From contig JBFLGF010000128.1 of NCBI GenBank assembly GCA_050230475.1, forward strand, positions 1 through 64,000: a DNA stretch of 64,000 bases. The letters run 5' to 3'. Of the stretch, positions 29,982 to 60,049 are shown piece after piece. This stretch comes from Ancylonema sp. Its lineage: Eukaryota. Numbering within the stretch: the stretch's first letter is position 1; the number at the start of each line of letters is the position of its first letter. Both the position numbers and the translations under genes were made by a program. Below the pieces are notes generated by a model. It was not told the DNA's origin. It saw only the letters and a list, made by a program, of their open reading frames with translations, and searched no databases.

Positions 29982-32934
29982 CTAGCCGATCTCAATCCCA
30001 ACTTGATTACCCAACCCACTCCCATCCTCAGATTTCCCACCACCACCTCCCAACCCCTCCTCTTTACTCCCCCCCAACCCCTCCGACCCCTTAGAGGAGA
30101 GTCCGCTTCCATTCCCATTCCCCAACTCCGCCCCCGCCCCCGCCCCCGCCCCCGCTTTCATGTCCTTCAACGTCTTCAGAGCCGCTAGCGTGCTCCGATA
30201 AATGGAGTTCACATGCCCTTTTCTCTTCCCCATCTCGTCCGACTCCTCCTCCTCCCCCTCCTCCTCCTCCTCTTCCTCGTCTTCCCCACACAAAGCATCC
30301 GAACTCTGAGCCGCTGACATGCTGTCCTCCGAAACTTCCTTCTGTAAGAACCAAGCACAACAAGAAAGGGGCGGTTACAGATAACCGCCTTGAGTAACCG
30401 TACGGGTTTCACTCAAGGCCGTTCCCTCAACAAATAGCCACATGAATAGAGTAAAACATGTCTTAACACATACTGTCGGTCCCAGGAACAAATATTAATT
30501 TCGACAGGTTATAAATTAACACGTCAGCTTCTGGGTGATATCCCAAAATCGGGCTGGAGATTTTCGATTGAATAAGAGAGGTTATTGATCAGCACTGTAT
30601 TAATTGATACAGGTTTCACCGTATCTCACCTCCACTACCCCAATGACCTCTAAAGAGAAAAGGGGGACTGACCTCTGCGTCTCTCCCAACCCTTTGCCGC
30701 TTCTTCTGCCCCCCCCCCCCTCCCATCCACAGCCGCCCCTACATGTTTTGCCACCCCTCCCCCTCCTCCCGACCGCACTTCCACCCCTAACTGCCCCCCC
30801 CCCCCCCCGCCGCCTCCCCCGCCCCTCGCCAGCCGCAGCATCCGCGGAGGCCTGCCCCTCTGATCCGGGGAAGGGGGGGGGGGGTAGGACCAGTTCCAGG
30901 ACCTTTTCGCACTGTGCAATGAGTTTGGTGAGCATGTCGGTAGTGGTGAAGGGCTGGTTAGAGACGGTGCGGATGAAGGGGGCGCGGAGGTTGGTCAGCA
31001 TGCGCTTGTCGTACTTCTTCAGAATCTTCAGCAGGCCTGGGGAGACGAGGGGCGGGTTCGGGTTCAGGTTTGGGTTCGGGTTCAGGTTCGAGTTCAGGTT
31101 CAGTGTCGGGTTCAGATTCAGGTTCAGGTCCCAACACTCTCTTTTGATAAACGGCATGGGCATGGGCATTTGGTTGTTGAAAATCGGTGTGCTTCATTAC
31201 TTATCATTATGCTGTTCTGCGTTTTGGGTTCGGGCGGATCACAATGCAGAAAAAAAAAAAACTCCCACGCTATCTGTCTCCAACTTTACCTCCAAAACAC
31301 GAACCTAGACCTTCACACCTCCCTCTCCCTCCTCCCTCCCTCCTCCCTCCTTCCCATTCTTACCTTCCACTGCCTCTACCCCTACCCCCACCCCCAATCG
31401 CCCGCTCCCCAACCCCCCCCCCTACCCCCCCCCCGGCAGTCCCCCCTCACCCATGAAGTTGAGTGATGAGTAGTTGAGCAGCAGCACCATCTCCCCGTGG
31501 AAGCCCACAATGTCCCGCCGCAGGGCCATGACCTCGGGGGGGCAGGCCGACCCCCAGAGCAACCTGCTGGGCTCACTCACGCAGCTCATGCGCTCCTTGA
31601 GGCACTGAGCGGACAGGGAGGGGGACAGGTGGACAGCCGGGGGAGGGGGGAGGGGGGAGGGGGGAAAGGGTGGGTACCTTCCTTGTTTTTGGAAGACGAG
31701 TAGCTGTGGTATCTATTCCAGGAACACGGGAGGTATCTCATAACCGTCACTCACACGGTTCACCAAACGCATGCAGCTGTGAGCCACACACTGACCCCCG
31801 AAGGAAAACAAATGTATCTCAGTGTAGATAAACAGCGGTCGGCTGAATAGTCATCAGCGGTCTTCTCAGACAGAAAAAATCCCTATACCCTTGAACCTAT
31901 AAATACCGGGCTTTGGAAAGAGACTGTAAGAGGAAGGCCGCACAGATATGCGAGGTGAAGGCGTCCAGGTTAGTTGACATGTGTATTTCTTCCGAACCAA
32001 AAGCAGGACAGACAGCTATACGCTTCGGCGCCAGGTACGCCCGACGACCGTTGTATCGAACAGGGCCAACCAGTACCACGTCCCGCTCAGCCTCCTCACC
32101 CTCTGGGGGAAAGTGGCACCTAGTCTACCCTCCCATTCACACTGTCGCTCTGTTTCAGTATTATAACGGTATTATATTCCAAACCGTACCTACGATGCTG
32201 ACACGGTCTGCGGTTACGGTTCCGGTATTAGTATCCATACTTAGAACTCAAAAAAAAAACCAGACCAGAGCTGTTGGGACTTTGCAAGCTACTGCCACCT
32301 GGCGCGGTCACACTGCCACCTGCACACCTACCTCCCATCCATCATATGCCGAGAGCTAGCTAGCTAGCTTGCCAGCTTGCCAGAATAATCGGTTGAAATA
32401 GCGAACATATCCCTCGGGATATCGACATCTTACCTCCAACTTTATCACGTAGTCCTCTACTTTCTCCATAAAAAACTCGTTGAACTTCTCCAGCTCGCCG
32501 TTTAATAACCGTATGAACTCCCTCTGCTCTTCTGCAGAAATATGCCTGCTACTCGCTCCCGCCCCACGCACTTCCTCCCTTCGAGCAGGAACCTTTCCGT
32601 CTAGTTTAACCCCACCGGTACCCAAGTCTTCGAGGCTATCATCGCTATCTTCCTCGGGAACTGCTTGCACCACATTCACCTTCCCTTCCGGCTCTGACGC
32701 TTTCATAACCGCCTCGCCCTGAATCCCGAGATTTGCGCCATTTCCTGTCCGACTATCCGGGTCAGTAGTGTTGGTAGCTGGATGTGAGCCAGGCTCCGCT
32801 TCGTGTGTGCCGTTGACAGGTGGCGCGGCCAGGGTCTTTAGCCTCTTCTTCAGCTCCTTGTACGACAAGAATTTATTGCGCCACTCTGGCAACGTGTCTT
32901 CGATTTGAACGCGGAGACGCTTTCCAAATTTCAT
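29982..32934 (-). CDS. SPX: SPX-domain-only protein (phosphate signalling); exons approx. 32934-32434, 31604-31451, 31036-~30673, ~30342-29982
   Basis: MKFGKRL...[74 protein letters not shown]...PFI...[10 protein letters not shown]-terminal [15 protein letters not shown]. Exon 3/4 boundaries are uncertain because of homopolymer runs. Confidence 0.93.
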
Positions 32935-33596
32935 GGCTGCAGTGCGTCTACGGTCTGGAGTGCGTTTACCGTATGAGGGTTCCCTCAAGCGCAATTTTTC
33001 AGCTGAGAAGAAGTATCGAATGCTCAAGATTGAAAAGCTGTGAAGACGGACTGGAAAGGTATCCTGGGCGAGGGATCGACGGATTCCACGTGGATTCTGC
33101 GAAGATTCTCTCAGAATAATTTCTGCGCCTTTCGACCTTTCAGTTGAACTTGCGGAGTGCGACTCTATTATTGCGGCGTACAAATTCGGCGCACTGAGGT
33201 ACTGATTTTTCGATTTCCTATGCACAACTGTGCAGCAAGATCCAACGGCGTGAGACCAATTCACAGCTGAATGCCACAAATGAACGGCTATGAGCGCCAA
33301 TCGGATATGTATGCACGTGGTATAGCCGTGGCCGTGGCCGTTAAAGTCACCAAAGATTCCTAAGTTCGTGGCTGTAATCTCTGATTGGGCGTCAAAATTA
33401 AATTGACAATTCAAAAATCAACAATCAGTGAGCGAATCCCTGCAGGCCACGATGGCTGACAAGCTCGTCGTCTTCCTTCAAATTCATGCCATCTATTATT
33501 GCTATTGATGGGGCGTTGACAGGGGGGGTTTAAAGGCTTTCGCCAACCCTCATATCAGCGCTCTTTTTCCCAGCTTCAGCACGAGAAGATCGTAGA

Positions 33597-33866: not shown

Positions 33867-36800
33867 ATGGCGCTAACAAGCTGTGCAATCACGTGGACCA
33901 ACTTTTCATTGCCAGGATTCCGTCTTCCGACCGCAGGCGGGAGGTGGAAACATCGCGATTCGGAGGCGTCTTGCGCGCCCCGTTCATCCCTTGGTAGTTC
34001 CCCAAATCAGATCAAGGGTTGGGAATCAGAATTTACTGGTAGCAGAAGGAGAACCGGGGGAGGCGGTGGAGGTGGGGGTTGGGGTAAGGGGCAAGGGGGT
34101 GGCGGGGGGCGGCGAAAGGGAGGATTTGCAGTAGCCATGGCGGTCGATTATTATACGACACTTGGAGTTGGCAAGAGCGCTTCGAAGCAGGAAATCAAAA
34201 GTGCCTACAGGAAGCTAGCTCGCCAGGTATCATTTATCGAGGGGCTCTAGGACCAATTTCGATTTCAAATCTCTCTATGCGCCTTCTGGAACTCGCTTTT
34301 GATGCATATAGAAATCAAGAGACTGAAACCTACCCACAGAAGCTTCCGACCACCTACTGAAAAGTCCCTCGCTTTGGTCCACGGCTCTGACATTCTGTTT
34401 CTTTTCGGTGGGGCTGTGTGGTTTTTGTGGCTTCTTTGGGGTTCCAGTACCATCCAGATGTGAATAAGGCGGCAGGAGCCGAAGACAAATTCAAGGAAAT
34501 CAGCAATGCCTATGAAGTAAGTCTGCTGCTCACGGGGAGAGGAGTGTGGGCGGAGGGGGTTGGTTAAGGAAGGTATTGGCACTACCTCGAGTTGGGGTTT
34601 AAAGATCTCGATACCAAATACATTCCCTACCCCTTCGTGGGGTTACAGTTGGGACCTCCTAGTAGTAGTGGATAGATAGAGCAGTAAGCTGCTGGATAGT
34701 GCAGAAATTCTAAGGGTTTAGTTGTTGCGAGTTCTGAAAGTTCTCGGTGTGAAGACGGGCAAGGGTAGAGGGGCTGGCTTGCAGTGAACCACATACCTTA
34801 AACCTCATACCTTCCCCCCATCCCACAAAGCGAATGTCAAGGAACCATTCACAAGGCCCACAGTTTACAGACAGAGTCCGGGGGTTAGGGAGTCCAGGGT
34901 CCGTTCCAGGGTTCACGGCCACTGGAATTTTTTTTGGAAAGGATACTGCCCTTCCACCAACCTGAACGTCGGAAACTTTAACCCCGTTGACGATTTACCG
35001 TAGGATTCACCGTTGTTAATAGTTCATATTATAGTGAATGTAATAGTTGATATTTAACGCCTCCCCAGCAGTCACTTCACCTGATTTTGACCGTGGTTCA
35101 GCTTCTGCTTCAGGTGTAGTTGAAGTTCACGTTCTTAGGTCCTCTTGGCCCTCTCCATCCAAACCTGAACCTTAACTTAAACCTAAACCTAGACCTAAAC
35201 CTAAATCGAACCCGAACCTGAAGCATCAACCCAAATCCAAACCTGAACCTAAACCTGAACCCGAAGCTACACCTAAAACCAAACCCGAACCAGAACCCGA
35301 CCCTACATCTGGCCTCGTTCCGGCGACATGAGTCACCTGTGTAATAAAATGAGGCAGCAAGTAGTGGTAAGTGATGTTGGAAGTGATGTAGGGCAATCAA
35401 TCCCCGCGAGTCGATCAGGATACACCTTCCTGTGAACCCTGAACCCTAAACCCTAAACCACGAACTCTTAACCCTGAACCCTGAACCCTAAACCCTGAAC
35501 CCCTAAACCCTGAACTCTAAAGTCGGGCGCAGGTTCTGTCCGACGACCAGAAGCGTCCTCTGTACGATCAGTACGGCGAGGCTGGGGTGAGGGCGGGCGG
35601 GGCAGGCATGGGAGGAGGAGGGGGACAGGCGTACGCGGTAAACAACCAACCATGGACAAAATCACTTCCAAGGCCCTGCCTGGTCACTCATGGGGGGCCG
35701 TGGAGGGGGGGTGCGGGTGGGGATGTGGTTGGAGTCTCAGACAAACCCCTTTGATCTTTTCGAGACCTTCTTCGGAGCGAGCGTGGGCGGCACAGGGACG
35801 AGAAGAGCAGGACCCGCAGTGGGGGAAGACATCAAGTGAGGAAACCCCTCCCCCTCATCAGGACCTCGCAATCAGCACCCCCTCTATCAACCCCAACCCC
35901 CGACCCATAATCCCCGACCCCCGACCCCCAACCCCCAACCCTCAACCCCTGACCCCGACCCCTACCCCGCCCCGTGTGCAGATACACTCTGTCTCTGGAT
36001 CTGGTGGAGGCTGTTTTCGGCGTGGATCGCAGTCTGGACATCTCCCACCTCGAGCAGTGCGGGGTGTGTGGGGGGAGTGGGGCCCGCGCCGGCACCCAGA
36101 GGAAGCAGTGCCCCACCTGCAGGGGGATGGGGCAGGTCATGGCGGCGAGGCAGACGCCGTTCGGGACCTTCTCACAGGTGGGGGGCTTTTCCTGGGTTTT
36201 TCTAATGGGTTTTTCTTGGGTTTTTTCTGGGTTTTTGGGTTATTTTCCCAAAACCCGAAAAAAAACCCGAAAAAACCCCAGAAAACCCAAGCAATCCTAA
36301 TCTTTAGTATCGAATGATTCATCTATACATTACACTGCATCTGAAAACACCTAGGTGACTACGAAAAGGCCCGGGCAATCAATTTCTCTTCGCCCAATAC
36401 TTCCTGAACCCAAACTTGGTCCCCTCAACGGCGTCTCCGCATCACCCTACAGTCACCCATTTTTTCCTCTCCAAAACCGTCCCTCCCCCCCCCCGCAGGT
36501 TACCACCTGTGTCCAGTGCAGCGGGGAGGGTGAGATTGTGAGCGAGTACAGTCGTAAGTGTGGAGGGGAGGGGAGGGTCCGCGTGAAGAAGCAGGTCTCG
36601 CTGCAAGTGCCGCCGGGAGTGAAGACGGGGAGCACGCTGAGATTGAGGGGGGATGGGGACGCGGGGTTGAGAGGGTGAGGGGGGGACGAGAAAGGGGTTG
36701 CGCAGTCGTCGACGGTTTGTATCTATCGGTCATTCGTTTGTTTGTTTGTTTGTTTGTTTGTTTGTTTGTTTGTTTGTTTGTTTGTTTGTTTGTTTGTTTG

Positions 36801-43409: not shown

Positions 43410-46400
43410 GCTAATACAACTATGCAAGCGGATACTTTCATCGATGTGCAATGGGTAATATGGGCATACTTCGTGCACCATTCATCGTCGAGTTGCACTA
43501 AACCACCGTGAAACTCAATGTTTTTATCCACCACAATTGTTTGAGATCACGGCAGTGTGCATGAAAACGGTGTCGATGTTCGTGCAATCATTGGTTAATT
43601 AAAGGCCAAGACACAGGCGAGCTATAATTGATTACGTCTCGGAGATTCCAGACACACTAAAAATGGAAATACAATTGTAACCGGATGAGTGGGTAGGAAT
43701 TGAAACTATTTTTGGGCATCATATTCACCATTAACTCCCCGAATCACATGCTTAGCGAAAGTCAATGGGGGCGAAAAAGAAGCATTGGTGATGCCATAAA
43801 CTTATGGTTTGTATACTCTTCAAGACGTTGGTTAAAGAGAATCGATGTGGAGAACAAAGACGCATCGATGACACCACAAATTATATATGTTAACTTCTTA
43901 TCAACCCGCCAAAGGTGTTGTGATGACCCCTTTGATGCAACCATATGGGTATCTAATAACTTCTCTCATGAAGAGTAGGTTACAATGTGTTGCGAAGTTT
44001 TTGTTAACCAAACATCAAACAAACTCTAAGGACAAGGTTCTTCTTTTTTATTATTTATGTCATGTGACACGTGGATGTAAATAACATCCGGGAAATGTGT
44101 ATGGTTAAGGAGGTGTGCAGTGTTGCATATTATATATAAACTCTTATGTATAGACCGATGAATTATATCCCCGCCACAAGCTAGTCGTCATGATAGAATG
44201 TGTCGCAATTGTATATTAAATATCGACAAATTTACTAGTATTAGTACTGCGTAAGAAAGGTACGAGAGAACCAGTATTTGCAAATTTCTTGCAAAAGTTT
44301 GATGTCTCAACCCCTTGGCTGGATCTTGATGATCGATTTTTGACGTCGTAAAAATATGCTATGAACGATCTTGTATTATCGATGGATTATCTAACAATGT
44401 ATTTTCGTGGTTAAAAGTTGCATTCAACTCTCTCTTGTTTTTCTGAGAAGAAGAAGCGCAAATCGGTTTTCCGATCTAGGAAAAATGTTTGTCAAAAGCG
44501 AGCCATTCGTTAATATTGAATTCTCACAACGAATATCGGAAGCTCAAATTGCTCGAATTTTATTCCGTGGTAATTTTTTTGTATACAACGAAAATTTAAA
44601 CCGTGTCCAAATCCTGTACCGATGCTTGGTCGAAAACATCTTCTAAACAATGTAAATATTTTGATCTCTAACCAAGGAGGTAGTAGTCGGGTGTATAAAC
44701 TAAACTATATCGGATCGAAATGCGTACATGTTCGTGACAAGTTCAAATGTCAAGTTTCATACATAAATACCCCTTCATACAACGATACCACTTGACTAAA
44801 AGTATCCAAGGAACACCGCCAGACCGACCGACAAAAAAAATCATCACAAAACACACTTTGCTGAAGACATCACATCATAGTGACGCATTCGTTCATATTG
44901 CCAACACAACTTGCAATGCGCTTGGTCGCTTTCAGCATGCGTTGGTTTTCTTACCGTTTTGAGAATATTTCTGTTTGACTCCATTATTGGGGAGAGATGT
45001 ATCAATAAGGTGGGAAGATTATTTACTATGTGGTCCTGCAACCGCTTACGTATAGCAGCGTATCGATTACCGAATACACACAACAACACACGCAATGCCT
45101 TGCATTGTACAAAACTACAAGTTATAATGTTTTAATCGTACCTCCCAAATCACCAAATATAAACACGTGTTCCCATAACCCATACTATTGCCCCTAAGTC
45201 CATATACCACCCAAGCACAACAAGTGCTGAATTGTTTTTAACTTACTATCCAAAGCAAGGTAAGCTCTGGGTGCCAAAAATGCGAAGCGTAATTAGCGCA
45301 CAAGCAAGCTCAGAGGTGTTCCAGCTACGATAGAATAACAAATTGCGTAGAGAATCACGAATCGCACGTACACAAGATGTTGAATTAAGTCGTCCGGGAA
45401 ATGTTGTCGGAAAGTGAATACAAGAGTCACACCCTAGACGTATAAAAGTGGAGCACCAACCCACTCGAAGAATGTCGGCTGGACCAAAAGTCTAACCAAC
45501 GGTGATTGACTAGTGGCCGTTCAATCCCGGTCGTTCACTCAAATGGATGTTGGAACCCCTAACTCAATGATTGGTCAAGTAAGCGGGGGCGCCAATCATA
45601 CTCAAGCCTAAGAATATCCGCAAAAGCTTCCCCTTCACCTTTCTCCTACTGGGGCGTATCGAACTCTCTACTCCGTTAGAACGACACAAAGTCTGAAAGA
45701 TTGGATATACTCACTCGTTCCTACACAACGGTGCCTGGCACGCGTTATAACGACACGAGCCTATACACTACGACACCGCTTCCACGCGTACAAAGTTCCG
45801 CAACCTAGACTCGTACCCGCCGCCCAAGAGGAATCGAAATTACGCCTCTCTCACCATATTGATGAAGCCGATCGCTCGACGTCTCTTATACCGCCCACCT
45901 ACGTGGCGTCGTCGACGACCTATTATGAATCTGACTCGATGTTGAATTGATGCATTAATCATAAAGAATCGACATTTCGTTCTACTTTCCAAGTTCATCT
46001 AAAACTCAGGTGAAATGCACCGCAAATAATGGATGGCAAATATTTTTTGGAATTATGGGAGGATTCTCGTGAAGCCCGGGAACATTTTGGCAATTTCTCT
46101 TCTCGTTTCTTCGATTAAAAACCGCTAGAATTTTAAAGAGAAAAACACAATTTCATTAATGGATGTGCTTCTCTTCTATACTTTTTTGGCACATAGTCTC
46201 GATCAATTGTGTTGTGCTTGTAAGACTGGGATACTCTTCTTCTGCGCACGTCCAGCCCCGCCGTGCCGGTAGGCCTTGCCAACTTTGCGAACACCCTGCT
46301 ACAGTTTGAGAAGCATATCTGATAGCTTCAAACGATGTCGTTCCGGAACCAGCCGATTTTGAGATGTAGACCACAATTCCAATTACCTTTATGTTTGCTG

Positions 46401-49400
46401 ATTTAGTACGATTAAAATAAGATTTAACATGATAGTGCATCCTGTGTTTTTTCCGCAAGTTCCATTTCTGAATGTTCGGTGGTTGCGCCATCATGTTTGC
46501 AGGCCCCCCACAACAATGTTTTATTCACATCAGCTTCTTTCAAAAAAAGGTATACTTGGTCAGATATGGTGAGTGCTTCCAGTCCGAGAGGTCCCAGAGT
46601 GACCAGATGTCGATGAAAATCATATATTTATACATTTTTTTGGCAGCATCATTTACTAGTAGAGCATTATTTTGCAAGATTGCCGCTACGATGCAAGCGA
46701 AAATAAATCGGAGGAAGACGGAGCAGATTGACATCAGTGACATGTGGTAAATTTACCATCAGTTGACCATGCCACGATACTTCCTATCAACTTAGGCAGG
46801 CAGGATTATTCTATGTTGACCTCGATTTGACGATTCGCTGGATTTTACAGCCAACGATACATCGACAAATCTGTGTGTATGAAGCATGCACTAAACTAGT
46901 TGCTTACGGTTTTCGAATTTTGGACAGTGAACACATTCTACAGACACAAATTCCACTTGCGCTGCTACTTTCGGGGATTCTTATGGGTGAGCACTTTTGA
47001 TTCGCGCACGGATATTAGAAAATGTATTTTGGCTGCTGGCAACATGATTTGCCAACGTGCAGGAGGGCTGGTCGTGATATACGCCATAAAAGTTTCGTTG
47101 CTCTACGAGGACTACAACGAATTTCTTGTAAGTATGTACAACTTTGAGTTTACATATTATTGCACGCCTTGGTAGCTTGGAACCGTACATGGGTTCTCAA
47201 TTGAGCCCTTCGGCTGAATGCATGTGAAAATTAAGGTTGTCGCAAGAGTGCGCGAGATAGACCAAACTAATCTACCTCGTGGAAAGCGACATGCCAGGTT
47301 TGCAAAATATTTATAATTACATTGATGGAATTCGGTAGCATAGGTTTGTATAGAAACCGGACACTCCTGGTTGATTGGAGATTACAGATTGGAGTCGATT
47401 ACCATTAACTACGTGGGAGGAAATCTAGTTGAAGACCTCGAGCGACATTTGTTTGAGCCGAGTACTCCGGAGAAGCGAAGAAAAAAGCAAGTAGGTGCAC
47501 ACATTGTTATTCCAATAAATCATTATTTTTATCCCTTAGAAGTAACTACTATCAAAGTTGCATTCCATGTCTTGTTTCTATCTCTCGTCGGCTGTTTACT
47601 CACGATTATTCGTGGTTTTGATGGTGATGCAGACCGAAACATTCTTTCGAATGCCGGGTAAAGGCGAAGGTGAAGATGATCTCGACGAGATCCAGCCACC
47701 CCGGGCAATGGTGGCCAGCATCACCTTGGAGGATCCACTTCCGGATTTTGGAGGGTGATACCTCATATTTGCAGGCCTGGGATTACATACAGTTTACTCG
47801 TTTGATATATCATCGGAGGTGTTTTGGTGTTGTTTTCTATTTAAAAATGGTTGACCCGATTGCAGGGGATCTTTCCCGAAAACTTCAATTGCACCCTCGG
47901 ATGGTATGATGGGTATGGTAACATGCAGTCCCCGATAACTTTTATAGTTCGATACATCAAAAATTGATGTCCATATACTACCATTTCTGTTTATTCTACA
48001 TCTGACGGAAGAGACGGGACCCACTCAAGTTGCACATCCACATGACTCCACCGATAACACCTCGGCCAATCACCTACAGTAAGTGTGGAAAATGTTTTTA
48101 TATGTGTTTGGAGCATACATGCGATGCTTGCATTGATTTGGCGCTTAGTTCGCGCCGAATGTAAATCTGGTTATTAGTGATGTGATCATTCATAATGATG
48201 ATGATGATATAAAGGACGTGGATGACGAATTTTCGTATTTTCATGAGAGAGGGTCACCCTTTGTCATCCTTTCTTCAAATACAATTTCTGATAACGTGTT
48301 TTTCACTTCTCCTTCTAGTTTTCTCCGCGAGCAGTATTGACGTGCCAGATGGAGTCGGCAGACAGCCTCTTGACGAAATCTCTCAAAAACAAATAAATCG
48401 ACAGATTTTGGAAAAATCTGCAAAACTTGACTTTTTATATTTTTTTGCGTCGATGAAAATGACGGATGTTGGTCGATGACTTGGCTGCTTGTCTGGATGA
48501 GCAGCATCAGGATTGGGCCTTTGGTCAATATCTGGATCTCACTAGAGTAGATTGGTGTAGGTCGAATCCTTATTGACCACACAAGAATGTAATTCAGGCA
48601 CGGTATGTGACTTATCAACGAAGTTTGCTGTAGCTACCTACTACTCGCCGAAAGCTGAGATGCACTCAACGCTTAGTGGTGGGAGGTCTAGAAACAACAC
48701 TAAGGTTAATCACGCGTTGCAGGTTATCGTACTTCACAACAGGTGACAGCTACAAATAAAGAGAACGCAAGGCAAATAGCTATAGAATTTCTACAAGGGT
48801 GCAGAATGACTGATAGTTGGTTGCGACGGGGTGCGCACTCACTATAGGAATCAAACGTTGTCATGAATAAAACGATTCACTAGATCTGAACGGGTGCAGG
48901 CAAATTCAAAGGGTGAATTGTCTGACTGAGCTCGCACAAAACGGTGCAGCTAATTGTAACGATTTCTCACGTCAGCAAAACGGCTGACAATCAACGACTT
49001 GCAAGGGTCACGATTTTGCAAGGGTAACGATAATCTGACTACGGCAGAATTTCACACGATGCGTATGCAAAACGGCACACGTCTTTTTGTACTACTTGAG
49101 ATGCGACAGCACGCACAAGCAAACATGCAATTTCGCATAACTTACGGCTGGATGGAGCGACGCGAAGTTTGCAAAAATTCACAGAGAATATCAAAGGCGA
49201 AACGGCACACTTGATAACGATTGTTGACGATTTCAGAATACACGAATTCAAGATGGCGATTGCAAAGAGTTGTTGAAATTCAGACAACGTAAAAACTGAC
49301 AGCGGCTGACAGCGGTAGCTGGCAGTTCAGAAAGCAACTTAGGCTTTAGTACAATCGACGCGCCGTTTCACACGCGCGGTAATCTAGATCTTATCTTGAT

Positions 49401-50744
49401 CTATGGTAGAAAAAAAATATCGACTAGACAGCCAATCGTGACTGTCTATTCTAGAGTTCTAGATTTAACACGTGCGGCGGTTCAAACGCCAGGCTGGCTG
49501 ACTGAGATAAAGCTCGGCGCGCACTGGGAATCTACTCGTCGATACGAAAAAATACTCCGAATTAAAATCTAAAAAGTGGTACACCGACTTTTCTAGATTG
49601 ATTGAGTATATAAAAAAAAAAAAACAAACGTCTGACTGATTGAAACTCATATAACGACAGAGTTCAATACAAATACTAAAAATCGACAATTACCAAAATT
49701 GCTATTTTTCAAGCGTATCGACAATTAAAAAGACTTTACTTTCTAACGATCTCTAACGGCATGACAGCTGACGTGCTAGACGGAGTCGGCAAACAGCGTG
49801 TCGACGAAATCTCTCAAAAACAAAGTAATCGACAGATTTTGGAAAAATCTACAAACTATTTTTTTTATCATTTTCTGCGTCGATGAAAATGACGGATGTC
49901 GGTTGATGACTTGACTGATTGTCTGGATGAGGAGCATCAGGATTGGGCCTTTGGTCATCATCTGGATCTCACTCCCCCCCCCCAACTACGAAAGCTCTGC
50001 GTCGGAGGCTGGGACACATGGACATCATTTGATGTGGAGCAAGGTTAGGATGTATTGCAGAATGCCGGATTTCTTGTTGTTCACTGTCGAGACATAGGTT
50101 TTCTCAAACGCAGTGCACACACGGCGAGTTTGGTTAGGAAGTCCGAATTGCATTGGTTTCTAGTCGTAGGCATGATGAGAGGTGCCTGAGTCATACTATA
50201 GTTGGATGGCATGCAAGGGTGAAGGAAATTGTTATGAAAGAAACTGTGGGTTGGTGAGGTGTGGTGAGACAGCAGGGGTTGACATAGGGTCAGGATCTAC
50301 TGTGGTTACTCGCCAAGGTGTACGCCGTGAGGTTTCTTCAGAGAGAGGTGGTGAGTGACAAATCAAATGTGGAACTTCTGCCAAAAAAATCAAAATTTCT
50401 TTTTCTGTTTGAAGTAACGTGGTTGCATTTGCAGCGAGGGACTATGTTTGAGTGATGGCTGTATGAGAGCAAGGGTAAATAGTGGTCGAAGACGTCGATG
50501 TTTGGGGTGAACTAGATACGGAGGAAAATGCACTGGTGGTTTTCCAAGGTTCGTCATTAACAGGTGGTGGAATTGCCAATGGCGCAAGGAGAACTGATCG
50601 TACGGGTTTCTTCTTTTTGTTTGGTTGCTTGGGTTTCACATGCATTGGTTGGCTGACAAGATGCATTGTAACTTTGGTGGAGTTGGCCCTCTGCCTCAAC
50701 AAGGATGGTGGGGAATACCTGAGAGTTGAGGTGAGGCGCTATCC

Positions 50745-52278
50745 CTATGGGTTGTAGGTTGCCATGATGATGGATGCTAGCCAGTGGGTGACGTGACGAT
50801 CGAGGGACAAACCAAGGGTGCTGCGACGCTGAGCAGCGGTGCGGATCATTCCCACTGATCCTGCGGTGGCTCCCGGGGTGCATGGCGCGTTCCAGATCAT
50901 AGGGTGAGGGTGTAATGTAGGTGCCAGATTGTTGTTCATACACCATGCCCTCGCCTGGGTGACCGGTGGCCGGATCAATGGTGAAGTCAAAGCTGTCGGG
51001 GTATGGGGTGATAGGCGGGAATGCACGTCGGGGTTGCCCAACAATGTTCACAATCGGGGGTTGCACATCACTGGCAAGCACTGGTGTCGGGAAATGGCCT
51101 CGTTCTAAAATGTATGCAAGTTGACATCCAATGGTTTCACCAAGCAAGCAAGCCTCGAGAAGGCGGGTTGGCATGTGGTTCTACCACACAAGGGTTGATC
51201 GGCGGTTGTTGGAGTTGACCACGGTTGCCTCGATGACGGCTGAGTGTCTAAGGAAAGTGGTAACCAAAGGGTACATCTCTGCTACCCAGGGTGGTGAATC
51301 CAAAAACCGGTAGGTGAAAAGAATGTAACGAGGAGGGTGATCCTGAATGTTTGAGAGGTTTTGCAAAACCTTGAGCAGCGCCAGGAAAGGGTACACACGG
51401 TGATCGAAACCCCCCCTAAGTGGACGAAAAGTGACCTCCGTTTCCCTGTTCCAATTCCCCCCCACAATGTCGATTTGGCCTCGCTCGTTGAGGAGGTGCC
51501 GGAAGGCAGGTTCTGCCGTTTCCTCGATGATGTTGCTCCCCAAACGACTGCAACAACCTGCGAGTGCGTTGTCGGGGAGTTGTCCGGAGAATTTTCGTTG
51601 AGCTTTTTGCAAGGCGAAGTACACGGCTTGTTCGTCCGCCTTGCTCTCCACCTGCGTCGTGTAAGTCCCCACAAAGTCGCCGCATTCCAAGTGGAGGTAG
51701 AGGATGCTAATGTTGGATCCCCCAAATGGTCCGTAGATGTGCACGCCTTTGCTGAGGATGGACGGGTGAAGGGGTGCGATGCCGGCTGGCATGGGTTTTT
51801 CTCCTTGAAACTTGCGTCCGCTCCAATGAAGCTTGGGTGGAGAAAGGGTGAAGTCCTGCATGATCTTGTGGTTTCCCAAACGCAACAATCGTTGACCCAT
51901 GATGAGTTGCTCCTCGCGGATGGTGGCGACAACATTCACGCTACGGGGTGTGTAGATTCTCCGAGTGTCCTCGGCTAGTTGCTGGGGTGAAAATGTTGCA
52001 GGCAATACCCGTTGGGTGATGAGGTAAGGATATCCAGGCACGATGAGATGCTGATCTCTGGGGTTCCAGAATGGACACTTCTGACGGTAGCGAGCCCGAT
52101 GCCTGGCGAGGTCGTCACCATCACGGGAGTCACGCAAGTTGTCGTAGTCACGGAGTGCCAAATGGCGTTGTGCAGCCGTCGCCATAGCGTTGACTGCTGC
52201 CTGGTCTTGGGCAAACTGGGTTGCATTGTGCTGTGGGGAAGGGATGGGAAGGAGAGGGAGTACTGAAGTTTGTGCCAC
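50745..52278 (-). pseudogene. Retrotransposon-borne C5 cytosine methyltransferase-like domain with catalytic motifs lost; in-frame stop at 51181-51183 and a frameshift near 50878
   Basis: Collinear with DNMT domains of streptophyte gypsy elements as I recall them: GVHIYGPFGG (motif I), GQLPDNALAGCCSRL, IDIVGGNWNRE (motif IV position, no PC), PPRYILFTY (motif VI position, no ENV), EATVVNSNNRRSTLVW*N (motif VIII), VNIVGQPRRAFP...GEGMVYE, PSPYDLERAM (motif IX), AAQRRSTLGLSLD (motif X). Confidence 0.72.
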
Positions 52279-52309
52279 TCATGAGACCCACGACACTCCG
52301 GCGATCTAC

Positions 52310-54070
52310 ATGGCGCGCAAGAAGCAGTTTGCGCATCCTCCTGGCTCCAACCGTCAAGGACTTCGGAGTCAGCATACTACACCGACAGCAACAAAGGACG
52401 AGTGCGTCTTCAATGACGACGACGTCACTGTGGTTCCCACCGTCGATCCTACACCACTCCCTCCGGTGGATCCTTCAGCACCTGATCACATGGAGTTGAC
52501 CATTCCAGCACCCTTGGTCACCACCATTGCTGCACCCCTGTCACCACCTCCTGGCGCGGGACCCAACTTCATTACCCCGGTGTCATCTCTAGCACCTCGT
52601 TTCTCACCCTTGACTTCACCTATCTCGGAGTACAATGGACCACCTCGCTCTACCCTTAGTCGAGAGTTCGATTCATACTTTCGAGACACTCCCTAGAAAC
52701 CACGTTCATCGACAGGTAAACATTGCACGGCAAATCGTACCACCTCAGTGAAACACGGATATTCACCACAGACTTTGAGTGCAGGTCGTTCTCTTCGCTC
52801 ACCCGTGTTCCCGACATCACCATTGCATGCGGCGATAGCATCCTCACAACCAAAGGGTAAGTAATCATCCAAATGCATTCCTTTGCAATAAACCATCGAT
52901 GACACGATAATGGCACCATTTGCAGAAATTGCTGCACCTCCCACTGCATCGATGCAACCACCTTCGCCACCCGTTACCACCACACCATCGACAGTCGGAG
53001 GTACACATTTACCACCCGTCGATGAATCGCAAACAAGGCCAGCACCAATGTACATGTACTTATCTGCTAATGTCGAGGCAAATTCGGTACCCCGCGACAC
53101 GGTGCGATCGAAATTTGAGGAGGGACCATTACAAGCACCCTTGTCATCTCAGAACCTTGGCAAAGGACAGCAGACAAACCATCGACAAGAGCAGCTGTAA
53201 CTTGACCTGCTTAACCTCATGGCATTGGCTGACCACCTCCACATAGATCGATACGTCGACACCATGCTGCAATAGTTCAACCCAGACATCCAGCTCACCC
53301 CGATTGAGCAACTCTACATCATCCTCACCCGTCCATTTCATGAGCCTCACCACGTGACCCCGCCATCGATCGAAGCCATTCGGACTCAGGCTACCTCGGA
53401 TCGAGTGAAGAGGGAGAAAGTGGACAAAGATAAGCTCACCGCTAAACTTCGTGCTTTACTTCGGCAAGAGTGGGAAGCAGAACGGGAAGCCGATCGCATG
53501 CAAGCTGCCGAAGACACTACGGCAGTGGACGAACCAACGGTCGACAACGTGGACGCAGAGTTGCTAGCGGGCCGTCAACGCGAAATCGACAACCTGGCTG
53601 ACGATATGCAACAAGCCAACCACACCATCTTCAACCAGGGTGCAGCATTGCGGGCAAAGGGAGATGCCATCGCAGTCTACCAAGCGGAGAAGAAGAAGGG
53701 CAAAGAAAAATCGGACCCTGTCGTGAAGCTGGAACTTTCGGACTCTGACTCCGACGACAACATGAAGAATGTTCCACCTCCGGTATACAAGCATCAAACC
53801 ACGGTCACCATCGGAGAGCGCAAACCAGTCCGGAGTCCACGCGCGGAGTTGCAGCGTCCTATACATCGACAAAGGACGACTCCCCCTCAGCCCAAACTCC
53901 ACCGACGCCCCAGCCCATTCCAGTGTACCAGACTGTTCCTCGGCGTCCCCCGCCATCGACACTCCCCACGGAACGCTTGCCAAACAATGTCCTCCCCTCC
54001 GGAAGTCTGGTCGATACATGTATGTTTCGGTCCACGAATCAGGATATCCTCCCATCGGGCAAATAAATGA
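52310..54070 (+). pseudogene. Antisense ORF inside the retroelement: Pro/Thr/Ser-rich N-half plus predicted coiled-coil region; probably two 69-nt introns
   Basis: ORFs 52190-52696, 52910-53200 and 53354-54070 share one frame. It is broken only by TAG/TAA at 52694, 53198 and 53273, and by two TAA inside a GTAAGT...TTTGCAG segment (52857-52925). Starts MARKKQFA. Confidence 0.6.
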
Positions 54071-56162
54071 GTTGCCAAGGATGATGTCGAACTCCGTCGA
54101 TGGTGACAGATGGAGGTGAAGATGCACAGTGCAAGGGTGAGCAGTGCCTTCCCCAACGGTGATGGGAATCTTCTCCTTGGTACTCCCCAAACTCGTCTCT
54201 ATCTTTCCTGACGCCGTGATATATGGTGCTCCGGGGTGCAGGTCAGCGGGTGAGAGTTAAAGGAGTTTGGTGAGGTTGGCGCCAATCATGGTTTCTTTGG
54301 CACCAGTGTCTAATACATTCTCCACGGGTTTCACATCGCCTACGAGGAGAACACCTCGTCGGCTAGGCAACATGGTGATGCCGTAATGCTTCGCCAGCCG
54401 GTTGTGGTGAGCAGGTAGACGGGCTGAAATATGAAAGAAGACGGGGTTGGTGGTACGGGCGTTTGCAGGGTCTTGCATGAAGTGCACCTGATCGGCTGCC
54501 TCCTGGAGTGCTGACTCCGTTCCCTAAACCATGGCGCGTTGTTGCATCAAAATTTCATGAAGACGATCATGGTGAATCTGAGCTTTAGCCAAGGGTAAGG
54601 GTGGTGGCACATCTGAATCATTCATGTGCTGCAGACTGGTAGTACCTGGTTCCACTTGCAAAGGAAAATGTGGTTCGAAAGAATCAGGCATTTTGGTGTT
54701 GTATCCCTGTCGTCGACCCATAGTCTTCTCCTTCTCTAGCAACGGTTTCCAACAATGTTTCAGAGTGAGGAGTGGGGTACTCCCTCGTTCTGACTGAGCA
54801 TCTTGGTAAATTGGAGTGTCTCGTTCTCTAGTGGGTGAAGGAGACCGTTCCTTAGTCTGCTGTTCTTCACCGTCACTAGGTGAGCCCTGGTTTGCCGAAT
54901 GCATAGGTGTGCTGACATCGACAACGACTCTAGCACTCTTTTTCCTTCGTGCCTTTCTCTGTCCTTCGTTGTCTACAATGGCTGCAACTCTGGGTGAGCG
55001 ACGTGGTGCCATCATATAATGAGCTGGGAGATCAGGGAAAGTACCTTGTGTGTCTCACTAGGGGTGAGATTGGTGTTTTCTTTCGCCTTGGTTTCTCAAG
55101 GTAGGCCAGAGATGAGGTGATGGGACGATGCATGTACGAAGTTGGTGGCTCACGGCTATTCCACTCGGTTATGGTTGCACCTGCACGGGGTGAAGCATCA
55201 ACATGAATGGTGAGATTTTGACTGGCTCGCTTGGCTTTCTTGCATTGTGCAACGGTGTGGTTAACCTCCCCACAGTGTGAGTAGTGAGCCCCTTGTATGT
55301 AGTCACACTCTCCGTATTGCCGTGTCCGTGGTAACTTCTTTTGATTCTCTGGTGACTGTCCGTAATTGCCACCCTTAAATGGTACCATGCCGTAGCTGAC
55401 GATGGTGAAGGGTTAGGGCGTGTCGACGAAAATGGTGAATTTGTCACCGGTTTATCTTTCCGGGGTGAGGGTTATTTTCTAGAGTAGTGTCCCTGCTGGT
55501 GACAGTTGTAACACTCAATCGGCTTGTCAGGTCGAGATCGCGGGAGATCTCCGGAAAAACTGACGTGACGCAGGGAAGTGGATGGAGTCCCTTGGTTAAG
55601 CTTGAGCGCGCCAAATGTCGACGGGAGCTGAGGTCCCACCTCTGTTGCTGCTCGATACTCAGAGCCAACTTTGGTGAGGGTGAGTTCAAACCTATCAGCT
55701 TTAAACATGAGATCCTTGACGGAGATAGGTGGTGTCGGCGTCGTCTCATATAATTTCTTCTCGGTTTCCTGGATATACCAAAATCCAAGTAGAGGCGAAA
55801 TTGAGTTTTGCAGAATTGAGTGAGTTCTCTAGGTTCAGGTCGAGGAAGAGGCGTTGGTCGAACCATAGGTGTGGCTAGGAATCTTCCTTGTGTTCTCCAA
55901 CAGTACATTACAGAGTTCTTCTCACGATGGGTGTCACGAGCTGTCATAAGGGTTACGTCACCAAGATTGTCTTTTCTAAATTTCATCCAGACATCATGTG
56001 CAATACCCATGGTGAACCTGCATACTCGATGGTGTCCCACTGAACATGCCCGTTCCGTTCGTTAGAAGTTTTGTATATAAAATACGACCACAAAGCATCC
56101 ACAAATTCTTCCTGTTTGTCACGGACCTCGCCAGAATACAAATGTACTTTTTGTTCAGACAT
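53564..56162 (-). pseudogene. Degenerate gag + aspartic protease of the retroelement
   Basis: Gag-like start MSEQKVHLYSG. Knuckle-like CYNCHQQGHYSR (~55480-55515) and YSHCGEVNHTVAQC (~55245-55285). Protease VLDTGAKETMIG (~54310) followed by ITASG and FDIILGNSF. Stops and frameshifts present. Confidence 0.82.
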
Positions 56163-59100
56163 GTCGTCGATACTATCGTCAAAAATACTTTCCGAGGTGA
56201 CAATAAAGGGTATTGTCGGAACCACAACAACGGGTGTTGTGCCTGTCATAACCTCTGCTGAAGGTCCACCTAGTTGAAGAACAGGTTCTTCGTCAAATAG
56301 AATGATTGGTAAGATTGTTTCGAGGTGACGGAGGTTGTTGTCTGACTCTGAATGTTCTAAATTCGCCAGAGTAGAATTCAAATGACTGTCGGGTGAAACC
56401 TTGATCGAACGGTTGGATTGGTCTCTTGTCCACTGCATACACTAGAATGCCAAAATCTAGTACGCCGGTGAGATAATCCATAATTTGTTTCTTTGGTTGC
56501 GGTCGATTTGAATCGACAATAACTACTATGCCAGTATTCGTATGGTATATGTCCAAAGCCAGGGTGCTGAGAATAACCAAGGGTGACAGGTCACGGGGTC
56601 GGTTTTTTTTTTTTCCTGGTTTCGTACCTGTCGAAAACTGCAGACCTCGATGCGAAGAAGCTCTTCCGCTGGCCAGTTTAGAGTAGATTGGTGTGGGTTG
56701 AATCCCTACTGACCACACAAGAATGTAATTCAAGCACGGTATGTGACTTATCAACGAAGTTTGCTATAGCTACTACTCGCCGAAAGCTGAGATGCACTCA
56801 ACGCTTAGTGGTGGGAGGTCTAGAAACAACACTAAGGTTAATCAGGCGTTGGAGGTTATCGTACTTCACAACAGGTGCAGCTACGAGTAAAGAGAACGCA
56901 AGGCAAATAGCTATAGAATTTATACAAGGGTGCAGAATGAATGATAGTTGGTTGCGACGGGATGCGCACTCACTATTGGTTTCAGGAATCAAACGTTGTC
57001 CGTGAATAAAACGATTCACTAGATCTGGAACGGGTGCAGGCAATTCAAAGGGTGAATTGTCTGACTGAGCTCGCACAAAACGGTGCAGCTAATTGTAACG
57101 ATTTCTCACGTCAGCAAAACGGCTGACAATCAACGACTTGCAAGGGTCACGATTTTGCAAGGGTAACGATAATTCTGACCACGGGAGAATTTCACACGAT
57201 GCGTATGCAAAACGGCACACGACTTTTTATACTACTTGAGATGCGACAGCACGCACAAGCAAACAGGCAATTTCGCAGAACTTACGGCTGGATGGTGCGA
57301 CGCGAAGTTTGCTGAAATTCACAGGGAATATCAAAGGCGAAACGGCACACTTGATAACGATTGTTGACGATTGCAGAATACACGAATTCACAGAGATTTC
57401 AAAGATGGCGATTGCAAAAAGTTGTTGAAATTCAGACAGCGTAAACTGAGAGCGGAAGGTGGCAGTTCAGAAAGCGACTTAGGCTTTAGTACAATCGACG
57501 CGCCGTTTCACACGCGCGGAACTAGATCTTATCTTGTCTATGGTAGAAAAACAAATATCGACTAGACAGCTAATCGTGACTGTCTATTCTAGAGTTCTAT
57601 ATTTAACACGTGCGGCGGTTCAAGCCAGGCTGGCTGACTGAGATAAAGCTCGGCGCAGTCTGGGAATCTACTCGTCGATACGAAAAAATACTCCGAATTA
57701 AAATCTAAAAAGTGGTACACCGACTTTTCTAGATTGATTGAGTATATAAAAAAAAAAAAACAAACGTCTGACTGATTGAAACTCATATAACGACAGAGTT
57801 CAATACAAAGACTAAAAATCGACAATTACCAAAATTGCTATTTTTCAAGCGGATCGACAATTAAAAAGACTTTACTTTCTAACGATCTCTAACGGCATGA
57901 CAGTATGACACCGAGCAAGTGGAGGCGCTGTCCATGGAAAACCTTTCAGGAGGCCTTGCGAGGTGGCGAGCGGCGAAAGTATTTTTTCAGATCTTCGGTA
58001 CATTCGCAATACTTTCATCCCAACTTTTAGATATTTAAATATTGAGATTTGATTTCTGGATTTCTTCGCAGCTGCAATATGAAGTATCGATGTAAGTAGA
58101 AATTGGTGGCGAAATGAGTCCGAAACATTGACAACGATGTGGTGTGGTTATCTTTTATCCTCGTGTACGCACTTTTGGCATCCAACCGCTATTTATCTGC
58201 AAGATCATTCAAAGATCATGCTATTTAACCAGCCAGCCACTCCGTACGGGGACATCAAGATCATGCATGGCCAATATCGTTGAGATTATTTGAATTACAG
58301 CATCGCACAATTCTTATTCAATGTGACGTATAAGGAGCCCTCTATTCCCTTAATCGAGTAGAGACTTTGCTATTCTTTGCACGTGTGCAAAGGGCCACAT
58401 TTTTTTTGTTTTTGTTTTGTTTATATATTTTAGTTTTCATTTTTTATTTCAAGGATTTCCTCATCACGTTGGCACCACCTAGTCGTCCAGGACAATGAAG
58501 TTTATTTAAGTAGATTATTTGGTGTTGCGGCCTGTATTGTTGCCTTGAGACACATATGATTTGGATCAGAAACACTCGAATGGCTGGAGGTAGGAGGACA
58601 CAAGTACAACGGCCAATCGTTAGATAGTGAACAATCAGATAGAATGATGGCGCAAGAAGGCTCTTCCTGGTATCACAAGAAAATTTGGAGCACAAGGACA
58701 CATGTTCAGGTGGATAGAAACCAAAAATTGATATGCAAGTGCTGACATCAGTACTTTTTGAGAAGTTGGATCACGACATGATTGTCCTCATTGAAATAAT
58801 TTCACCGACATTTGAGAACATAATGTGGGATGACCACATTTCAATCCGTCATATGTGCCAACTTTTATGTGGCATTTGAGAAGAATGGTGGACCACAACT
58901 GAATATAGACAAAGTTGTATGGGGCAATGGAGTCGAGAAAAGTTAGATATAGTGGTCCCTGGATATAACGACCCTCTTTAGAAGGACAAACTCGGTATAA
59001 CGACAATTTTTTTGAGTTTTTTTATAATCAATATGAAATCGCCCGCGCTATAAGCATAACGACACTCTATACAAAGACAAATTATTTGAGAAATTGTTAC

Positions 59101-60049
59101 TGAATGTCTTTATATTGTAACGGAGTGACGTGCGCGTTATCTCTAATAATCCACAATTGAACTAATTGTCGATTGTGCTTATAAGCGAGGTTGATTATTA
59201 TGGGTCGCCGGTCCGAGGCCAACGCCCCTAATTTGAGTATTATTAATACTGGCGCTAGCTTGCGCCAATCAATACTTGTACGAATATTGAACCGCCACTT
59301 CGACGGGTCGAAGTACCAATCCACACGTACGGTGTAACCGTGCCGGACGAACTTACATTGACGTATAGTCAGCGGTCAACGCGAGGCTAGGAGCCCGCCT
59401 CGACGAATACAACTCGGAGTTGTCAAGCGGCGTGGGCAACTGCTCTTAGTTGAGGGGTGTCACGTCCTCAACTGATATGATTCTGAGCTCGGTTCATCCG
59501 AGGACTCTCACCTTAGTATACTCACGCCGAGGTTGCGAAGCATGGACAACGAGTTGTGGAGAATAAGCTTCTGTTGGTGTAGACCTCGGACACAGCGTGA
59601 GAAAACGTTCGAGTCGTTTGTATATTCACCTTATGAAAACAACAAGTGTATTGCCCGTGGGGTGGTACCTTTCATATATTGTGTATATAATGCTATTGCT
59701 CGTAGATAACGATGTATGGAAATCGAGAAAAATCTAAAAACCTCATGAACGACACCCCAAATTCTCTACAACGTGTTCGAGTTGTTCGACATGTCATATC
59801 AAGAGAACGCCACTTCTGTCCTCCTCGGATGGTCCAGAACTAACTATTTTGTTCATCCGCATGTATTGGTATCATGACGCACTTGTATAGCTCGTACATC
59901 AACACACACGCTGCATTGAATAATCATGCCAAGGCAACTTACTCTAGGAAACACATGATAAACACATTTGCTTTTTTACTATTCTTCATTCGCGAAGTCC
60001 CTCGATACAAGGACACAAATTTCATATTCTAGTAGTAATTGTCCATGTA

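Follow-up and report, generated by a model that had tools for sequence, protein, structure and literature searches.

A defective retroelement combining split direct repeats with TG...CA ends and a 4-bp flanking duplication in an Ancylonema contig

The first 64,000 nucleotides (nt) of contig JBFLGF010000128.1 of Ancylonema sp. (assembly GCA_050230475.1, forward strand), hereafter referred to as the window, contain a defective retroelement copy on the minus strand at positions 48338–57902 (9,565 bp). In element sense, two distinct direct repeats, X' (1224 bp) and Y' (205 bp), are arranged around an internal region in the order X'-internal-G10 tract-Y'-GC-X'-Y', equivalent to an A1-internal-B1-A2-B2 layout. 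The termini are of the TG...CA type and are flanked by a 4-bp duplication. The favoured reading, with a probability of about 0.4, is that of a non-autonomous long terminal repeat (LTR)-type retroelement which was inserted by the DDE integrase of a partner at an abutted-ends palindrome (CA-GC-TG) inside the LTR as defined by the priming sites. The copy likely entered the genome in circularly permuted form.

Arrangement and ends of the element

A repeat search of positions 46000–60000 distinguished eleven direct-repeat families and no inverted pairs. Nine of the families, with a spacing of 8131–8152, tile X at 48543–49767 and 56679–57903, while two (spacing 1430–1431) tile Y at 48338–48543 and 49769–49973. 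When the element was aligned with the full 64 kb by blastn, the X pair (93.2 % over about 1,248 columns) and the Y pair (88.35 % over 206 columns) were recovered, and no further copies of the element were found in the window beyond these pairs. In element sense the full order is ATAC, the 5'-terminal repeat X'a (A1; 56679–57902), AAC followed by TGGCCAGCGGAAGAGC, the internal region (to 49984), ten G (49974–49983), Y'a (B1; 49769–49973), GC (49767–49768), X'b (A2; 48543–49766), the terminal repeat Y'b (B2; 48338–48542) and ATAC, with all repeats on the minus strand. The coordinates of the X and Y copies and their order on this strand, as proposed in the initial annotation, proved exact in the repeat search, in the blastn comparison and in the sequence itself.

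Both inner boundaries carry candidate priming sites. Y'a (49973–49769) opens with AG-TGAGATCC, and the ten G together with this AG (49983–49972) abut Y'a as a polypurine tract (PPT) does right before a 3' repeat, the AG being followed by the TG of Y'a. On the other side of the internal region, TGGCCAGCGGAAGAGC (56660–56675), which begins 3 nt past the end of X'a, is a candidate primer-binding site (PBS) by its position. The PPT abutting the AG at the start of Y' and the TGG following X', both of which had been noted earlier, are thus found at the inner X' and Y' boundaries. Two complete LTRs bounding the internal region are absent, with X' alone on the 5' side and Y'-GC-X'-Y' on the 3' side. 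No R-like short repeat is common to the start of X' and the end of Y', where only chance words of 8–14 nt are shared; X' and Y' have no common sequence, and the two ends are therefore not linked by a repeat of this kind. The start of Y' (TGAG...) and the end of X' (...CTCTA) do not pair as integrase-type inverted ends.

Such ends are found at the outer limits of the element. Both X' copies open with TGTCATGCC, at 57902 and 49766, and both Y' copies close with GGCACGTCA, at 48338 and 49769, giving the element the termini TGTCATGCC ... GGCACGTCA, of which the terminal 9-mers are inverted at seven of nine positions. In the one copy examined, ATAC (GTAT on the plus strand) could be read directly on both flanks, at 57906–57903 on the 5' side (57903–57906 in window coordinates) and 48337–48334 on the 3' side (48334–48337). 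A flank match of 4 bp has a chance probability of 1/256, as has, approximately, the occurrence of TG and CA at the two ends, and since the boundaries were set by the repeats alone, both features together lie far beyond chance. A single insertion at a staggered cut therefore accounts for the whole 9,565 bp.

The same ends meet within the element. The junction of Y'a and X'b (J4), in which the GC spacer separates the CA of Y'a from the TG of X'b, forms a 20-bp imperfect palindrome centred on GC with arms inverted at seven of nine positions, in agreement with the imperfect inverted repeats described previously around this site. The GC spacer is missing from the outer ends of the element. The end of X'b joins Y'b directly at 48543, as a U5/U3-type junction (J5). 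The inner boundaries (X'a to AAC-TGG... and G10-AG to Y'a) are the same points as those joined in X'b-Y'b, while the outer ends are the same points as those joined through GC in Y'a-GC-X'b. The observation in the initial annotation that the TG...CA ends and the GTAT duplication are located at the Y/X boundary, inside the LTR that the candidate priming sites would define, is confirmed by the sequence.

Other ways of dividing the locus were considered and rejected. Neither Y'-X'-Y' taken as a small LTR element nor X'...X' taken as plain LTRs has matching flanks or priming sites at its boundaries, and conservative recombination within TGTCAT, which is common to the 5' flank and the start of X', predicts junctions differing from those observed. 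The 5' flank TGTCATAC directly precedes the TGTCATGC of the element (57903–57910), and the target is thus similar to the end of the element itself, a likeness that could be due to chance or to target preference. At about position 155 of both X' copies (49600–49625 and 57735–57760, minus strand) a T run is followed by TATATA. This may be a promoter element, in which case transcription would begin within X'.

The two repeat pairs have diverged to different extents. Y'a and Y'b differ by 20 substitutions in 203 aligned bases (9.9 %), while X'a and X'b differ by 39 substitutions in 1202 aligned bases (3.2 %) and by 13 gaps (46 nt), the Y' pair thus being three times as diverged as the X' pair (Fisher p about 1e-4). 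Ten of the 24 listed departures of X' from the family majority are common to X'a and X'b, which are therefore close kin; all 14 listed Y' departures are private to one copy.

Representation of the family in public sequencing runs

Other copies of the element were judged from the short contigs of public runs, with eight runs from three studies containing part of the stretch; the shares in runs X4 and X6–X9 were 0.16 or less. Contigs of four runs were mapped at 95 % likeness and those of three runs (X1, X2 and X3) at 90 % on positions 48280–50070, a cut-off at which more diverged subfamilies may be lost. Runs X1 and X2 represent one sample, and possibly the data from which the window was itself assembled. 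In X1 the flanks have a depth of about 126, the internal region of about 16,000–50,000 and X mostly of 120,000–820,000, while the combined depth of both Y copies is comparable in order of magnitude with that of X. The family is thus highly repeated, with X and Y in a ratio of about one to one. Both outer junctions of the copy in the window are spanned in X1 and X2 by contigs of single-copy depth, covering 47457–48364/5 with one other letter on the 3' side and 57873/4–58900 with two other letters on the 5' side.

The junction between the G10 tract and Y' is common, with a depth at 49985 of 89,098 in X1, 2,322 in X2 and 112.8 in X3. An LTR made of X'Y' is excluded on this basis, and an ordinary XY-internal-XY structure of the other copies, one of the outcomes that would have spoken against the initial annotation, is contradicted. 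Beyond 50024 the depth drops about tenfold, from 154,621 in the bin 49960–50019 to 16,167 in the next bin in X1, from 6,001 to 685 in X2 and from 237 to 34.5 in X3, and a loose end is found there in X2 and X3 at both likeness cut-offs, most relatives thus continuing differently. A much commoner relative must therefore have the G10 tract and the final ~50 bases of the internal region in common with this copy, but another interior. This relative, with its shared repeats and G10 tract, may be the autonomous partner.

The Y'-GC-X' junction also occurs in other copies. In X1, 32 contigs cover position 49777 with a summed depth of 36,577, of which 34,757 carries the family-majority letter that is missing from the copy in the window. 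The best of the contigs over the GC junction extends 41 letters to each side, with at least 31 letters in X', and contigs over 49777 fit Y'b better than Y'a unless they extend into X'. As the depth of this junction is ~290 times that of the flanks (~126) in X1, the layout does not appear to be unique to this copy. Relative to the X' side (49756), however, the depth at 49777 amounts to only 6 % in X1 (36,577/605,553), 3.6 % in X2 (1,112/30,650) and 6.8 % in X3 (75.8/1,109), and with 4–7 % of the depth of the X' start the junction is not present inside every LTR. The other outcome that would have counted against the initial annotation, an ordinary YX-internal-YX structure in other copies, is thereby made unlikely. 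Deep contigs at the start of X' and the end of Y' stop at those boundaries, as variable flanks produce, and those over 48369–48371 (X1 depth about 144,000) stop within 32–35 letters, i.e. at the end of Y'. Most X' starts and Y' ends thus appear to be true element ends.

For the direct X'-Y' junction an upper bound of 41,680 was obtained at 48528 in X1, a value which includes contigs lying wholly within Y'. In one contig of single-copy depth (depth 128.1), of which the shorter side comprises 20 letters, 56674 is connected with 49973, so that the X' end and its five next bases meet the AG before Y', the letters in between not being known. If real, this contig would represent a second, different U5/U3-type junction, as expected if the junctions form anew in each cycle and are not derived from one copied deletion.

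Taken together, the depths of the G10-Y' junction (~89,000), the Y'-GC-X' junction (~37,000), the X'-Y' junction (at most 42,000) and the Y' end at flanking DNA (~144,000) fit the coexistence of split copies with short X'-internal-Y' ones, and suggest that the shorter form is the commoner. With ordinary Y'GCX' LTRs the GC junction should be as deep as X', and with ordinary X'Y' LTRs the G10-Y' junction should be rare; the depths agree with neither. Among metagenome contigs, no stretches were retrieved by two exact-pattern scans with the X' start, in the second of which one base was degenerate, the element's letter at that position being the minority in the family. The single pattern match among viral contigs was not a relative.

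Coding content and genomic surroundings

The 85 stop-to-stop frames of at least 45 amino acids in 49900–56800 (44 on the minus and 41 on the plus strand) were compared with Pfam at E values up to 1. None of the 85 frames matched reverse transcriptase, RNase H, integrase or tyrosine recombinase (phage-integrase-type) families, and as these are lacking from its internal part, the copy is non-autonomous and decayed, with remains of Gag and protease. A retropepsin-type aspartic protease domain (LDTGA ... IILGNSF) is encoded at 54065–54343 on the minus strand and is interrupted by one in-frame stop at 54257–54259. With the stop read as X, the frame matches PF13650 (Asp_protease_2; E 3.1e-6; 28.2 bits against a cut-off of 24.3) over profile positions 5–90 of 90 and residues 238–330 of P0001, while PF13975 scores 25.9 bits, under its cut-off of 28.2. 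One frame gave a weak RVP match in the Pfam scan, and an atlas search with the protease frame yielded no more than leads, below 0.9, to protease clusters of retroviral type. The read-through of the gag C-terminal part and protease had no homologues among longer or similar-length proteins, and the protease read-through had no sequence match in the PDB.

Upstream of the protease in element sense, a Gag-like frame (55475–55828, minus strand) ends in a CX2CX4HX4 zinc knuckle, with a zf-CCHC match (E 0.013) that scores 16 bits against a cut-off of 20.8, and the gag reading is interrupted by several frameshifts. The Gag knuckle, protease, G-rich tract and TGG site all occur on the minus strand and in the order known from LTR retroelements. 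The reading of the initial annotation is supported in so far as Gag and protease remains are present and a recombinase is lacking from the copy, while an integrase was not seen in the 85 frames. Autonomous relatives were not found in the searches for protein homologues or in the metagenome and viral contigs.

At 50560–52278 on the minus strand, a frame 573 codons in length, divided by a single stop into 365 and 207 amino acids, belongs to no recognisable family. It matched none of the Pfam families and nothing in the PDB below E 1.8, and its 365-amino acid part has no protein homologues and no usable atlas match; an AlphaFold2 model of this part, with a predicted local distance difference test (pLDDT) score of 39.3, was too poor for a fold search. 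As the whole internal region occurs at family depth, the frame is not a one-off capture. On the plus strand, an antisense open frame of 264 amino acids (53276–54070), rich in charged and coiled-coil-like sequence and without a Pfam match, coincides in part with the stretch immediately following the protease. No tRNA genes were detected in the 64-kb window, and no Rfam matches in 47000–59000 at E values up to 0.1.

Elsewhere in the window, host gene exons encode a ubiquitin C-terminal hydrolase of family 1 (7550–8416, minus strand), a piece of an NIF-type phosphatase (17474–17806, plus strand), an SPX-domain protein (32359–33417, minus strand) and a DnaJ protein split over frames (33867–36675, plus strand). 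The genome is therefore that of an intron-bearing eukaryote, and the surroundings of the element are ordinary eukaryotic DNA. A decayed Copia-type element at 205–3127 on the plus strand, with Pol_BBD, SH3_retrovirus and two RVT_2 pieces in different frames, may run off the start of the window.

Origin of the split layout and comparison with known systems

In the favoured reading, the G10 tract and the TGG site would mark the limits of the LTR for reverse transcription (LTR = Y'-GC-X'), while the TG...CA ends and the 4-bp duplication would mark a staggered-cut, DDE-type joining to the target at the GC site inside that LTR. The term integrase-type refers here solely to these ends and the duplication. 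An RNA extending from X'a to X'b would be copied by tRNA- and PPT-primed reverse transcription into a linear complementary DNA (cDNA) with Y'-GC-X' at both ends, and joining of the two cDNA ends, as in a two-LTR circle, would create the X'-Y' junction seen at 48543. Cutting of one CA-GC-TG palindrome would then yield the present molecule, with loss of the GC and integration with a 4-bp stagger. Shorter X'-internal-Y' copies would result from cuts at both palindromes or, in a one-LTR circle, from a cut at its only palindrome. All six junctions fit this one scheme, and cleavage of a palindromic abutted-ends junction by integrase is described for a spumaretrovirus in the available part of PMC1180852. 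Integration through an abutted-ends site inside the LTR as reverse transcription would define it is the reading that fits best. The earlier proposal of a circular cDNA with an att site inside the LTR is partly supported by the layout, ends and depths, while its circular intermediate is deduced indirectly and the unequal divergence of the repeat pairs is not predicted by a single two-LTR-circle event.

Several observations weigh against this explanation. No integrase, reverse transcriptase or autonomous relative was found among the 85 frames or as protein homologues, and the TGG site has no matched tRNA, the window containing no tRNA genes. The junction of X'b and Y'b lacks the 5–6 bases (AAC and the start of TGG) that are expected from blunt joining of the ends. 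A single two-LTR-circle event, in which all repeats derive from one cDNA, predicts equal ages, and the Y' and X' pairs are unequally diverged; gene conversion of the longer pair, or an unequal origin, possibly lies behind this difference, with conversion constituting an ad hoc rescue. The full-length reading covers one copy, and the argument at family level uses summed depths of short contigs, which are not copy numbers. In these data the X'-Y' junction is inseparable from contigs wholly inside Y', the junction contigs have four mismatches in about 60 letters and are hence near the 90 % cut-off, and the first ~100 bases of X' (49660–49767) reach a depth of about 600,000–820,000 in X1, two to three times that of the rest (median about 300,000). 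Truncated copies, or sharing with another family, may account for this excess. A wider claim, somewhat doubtful at present, would be that of a whole LTR-type family, primed by tRNA and PPT and equipped with Gag and protease, with an att palindrome inside its LTR, in which each new copy is circularly permuted, the split form is replication-competent and short X'-internal-Y' copies are by-products, forming the integrase counterpart of the split-repeat tyrosine-recombinase elements.

The locus could also be a rare accident within a family that is otherwise ordinary (LTR = Y'-GC-X'), caused by the single insertion of a two-LTR circle or tandem-LTR cDNA via a cryptic internal site. Two-LTR circles with imprecise junctions are common by-products of ordinary elements, one full copy was read and the depth evidence is indirect, all of which are compatible with such an accident. 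The GC junction would, however, then be situated in every LTR at about the depth of X', whereas 3.6–6.8 % was observed in the three runs. It occurs at ~290 times single-copy depth, similar to the internal region, contigs do not continue past the X' start and the Y' end, and the Y' start and X' end are without integrase-type inverted ends. An ordinary family with one freak copy is accordingly disfavoured and considered unlikely. A further possibility is recombination after insertion, whereby, for example, a one-LTR circle or second copy would have entered a resident short X'Y' or X'-internal-Y' copy via X'/Y' homology, with or without later gene conversion. A single crossover between a circle (internal region plus Y'GCX') and a resident X'Y' would give the exact order with the resident's duplication kept, and the unequal divergence of the pairs suggests differences in age among the four repeats. 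Nevertheless, a crossover in X' would make X'a and X'b as diverged as Y'a and Y'b, which is not observed, the two being close kin by their shared departures. This route also needs a resident which ends at the X' start and Y' end, itself the odd feature, and does not explain the unequal divergence either, and little probability is attached to it.

Another improbable reading is that of a non-autonomous split-direct-repeat element of the DIRS order (Ngaro-, PAT- or VIPER-like), of which a circular cDNA was inserted by the tyrosine recombinase of a partner, the flank match being due to chance or a shared core. The A1-internal-B1-A2-B2 layout is the defining one of that group in the available portions of PMC8969392 and PMC6681497, the outer ends equal the B1-A2 junction as in the DIRS model, and as the copy encodes neither enzyme, the case against a recombinase is no stronger than that against an integrase. 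The 4-bp duplication nevertheless speaks against this reading, since the absence of one is a recognition feature of DIRS elements (as stated in the accessible part of PMC8969392), and the GC of the B1-A2 junction, which conservative recombination would keep, is missing at both ends. The TG...CA ends, retropepsin, CCHC-type knuckle, G10 tract and TGG site are all at the positions expected of LTR elements, and phage-integrase-type families were matched by none of the 85 frames. Misassembly of a high-copy repeat is very improbable. Although the family is very abundant and the runs supporting the flanks may be the assembly's own data, single-copy-depth contigs with one or two other letters span both outer junctions, and the 4-bp match between the flanks links both ends to a single event. 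The repeat pairs are not collapsed copies, since they are 3–10 % different and have 13 gaps.

Among known systems, LTR retrotransposons are those with which the element shares the TG...CA ends, short target duplication, PPT and PBS position, Gag knuckle and retropepsin. Ordinary LTR elements are arranged as LTR-internal-LTR and their priming sites and integrase ends coincide, whereas here these boundaries are offset by 205 and 1224 bp, and the repeats are split as a consequence. LARD and TRIM elements are non-autonomous LTR retrotransposons without genes, and TR-GAG is reportedly a non-autonomous form which retains gag; like these, the present copy depends on a partner for reverse transcriptase and integrase. 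Among insertion sequences (IS), those of the IS911, IS30 and IS21 types undergo DDE transposition from abutted ends 2–3 bp apart, with the spacer lost on integration. Their circles and tandem dimers belong to bacterial DNA elements without reverse transcription, and the analogy is functional only. Integrase of HIV-1 is said to cleave a palindromic two-LTR junction in vitro. The two-LTR circles of the spumaretrovirus PFV contain a CA-NN-TG imperfect palindrome which, according to the available part of PMC1180852, can be cut by integrase to a linear substrate, and which resembles the CA-GC-TG found here. In retroviruses this palindrome is the LTR-LTR junction and its cutting restores the provirus order, whereas here it lies inside the LTR and an LTR-LTR-type junction is kept in the insert. 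Complex LTR insertions formed by template switching likewise involve a larger-than-unit daughter inserted in one step, but as described in the accessible part of PMC1950507 they share whole LTRs (LTR-internal-LTR-internal-LTR), with the LTR not split and the ends not located inside it.

The order of repeats is matched by the DIRS elements (Ngaro-, PAT- and VIPER-like), which have the same A1-internal-B1-A2-B2 arrangement, outer ends corresponding to the B1-A2 junction and an implied circular or end-joined cDNA in the available portions of PMC8969392 and PMC6681497. These elements encode a tyrosine recombinase and reverse transcriptase/RNase H and are recognised by the lack of a target duplication, while the present copy has no recombinase and a 4-bp duplication. 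It further differs from them in its TG...CA inverted ends and in the presence of a retropepsin, a G10 tract and a TGG site, and two bases of the B1-A2 junction are missing at its ends. The copy thus departs from each group in a defining feature, lacking the two complete LTRs of the one and, in the case of the other, lacking a recombinase and having a duplication.

Split direct repeats are taken as a hallmark of tyrosine-recombinase retroelements, and LTR-internal-LTR with coincident priming and integration boundaries as a hallmark of integrase retroelements. If the favoured reading is correct, the split layout can also arise from integrase chemistry on circular or end-joined cDNA, and the family would provide a natural case of two-LTR-type circles as productive intermediates. 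Software for finding LTRs, being built to expect equal repeats at both termini, would furthermore be shown to have a blind spot. Should a tyrosine recombinase be encoded by the partner instead, the DIRS order would gain members with a protease, priming sites and flank duplications. Among the titles and opening lines of abstracts in the searchable library on split direct repeats, on circularly permuted LTR retrotransposons and on tyrosine-recombinase elements with a protease, PBS and PPT, no description was found of the combination observed here, in which a split-repeat layout so far described only for another class of retroelements occurs together with integrase-type ends and a 4-base duplication.

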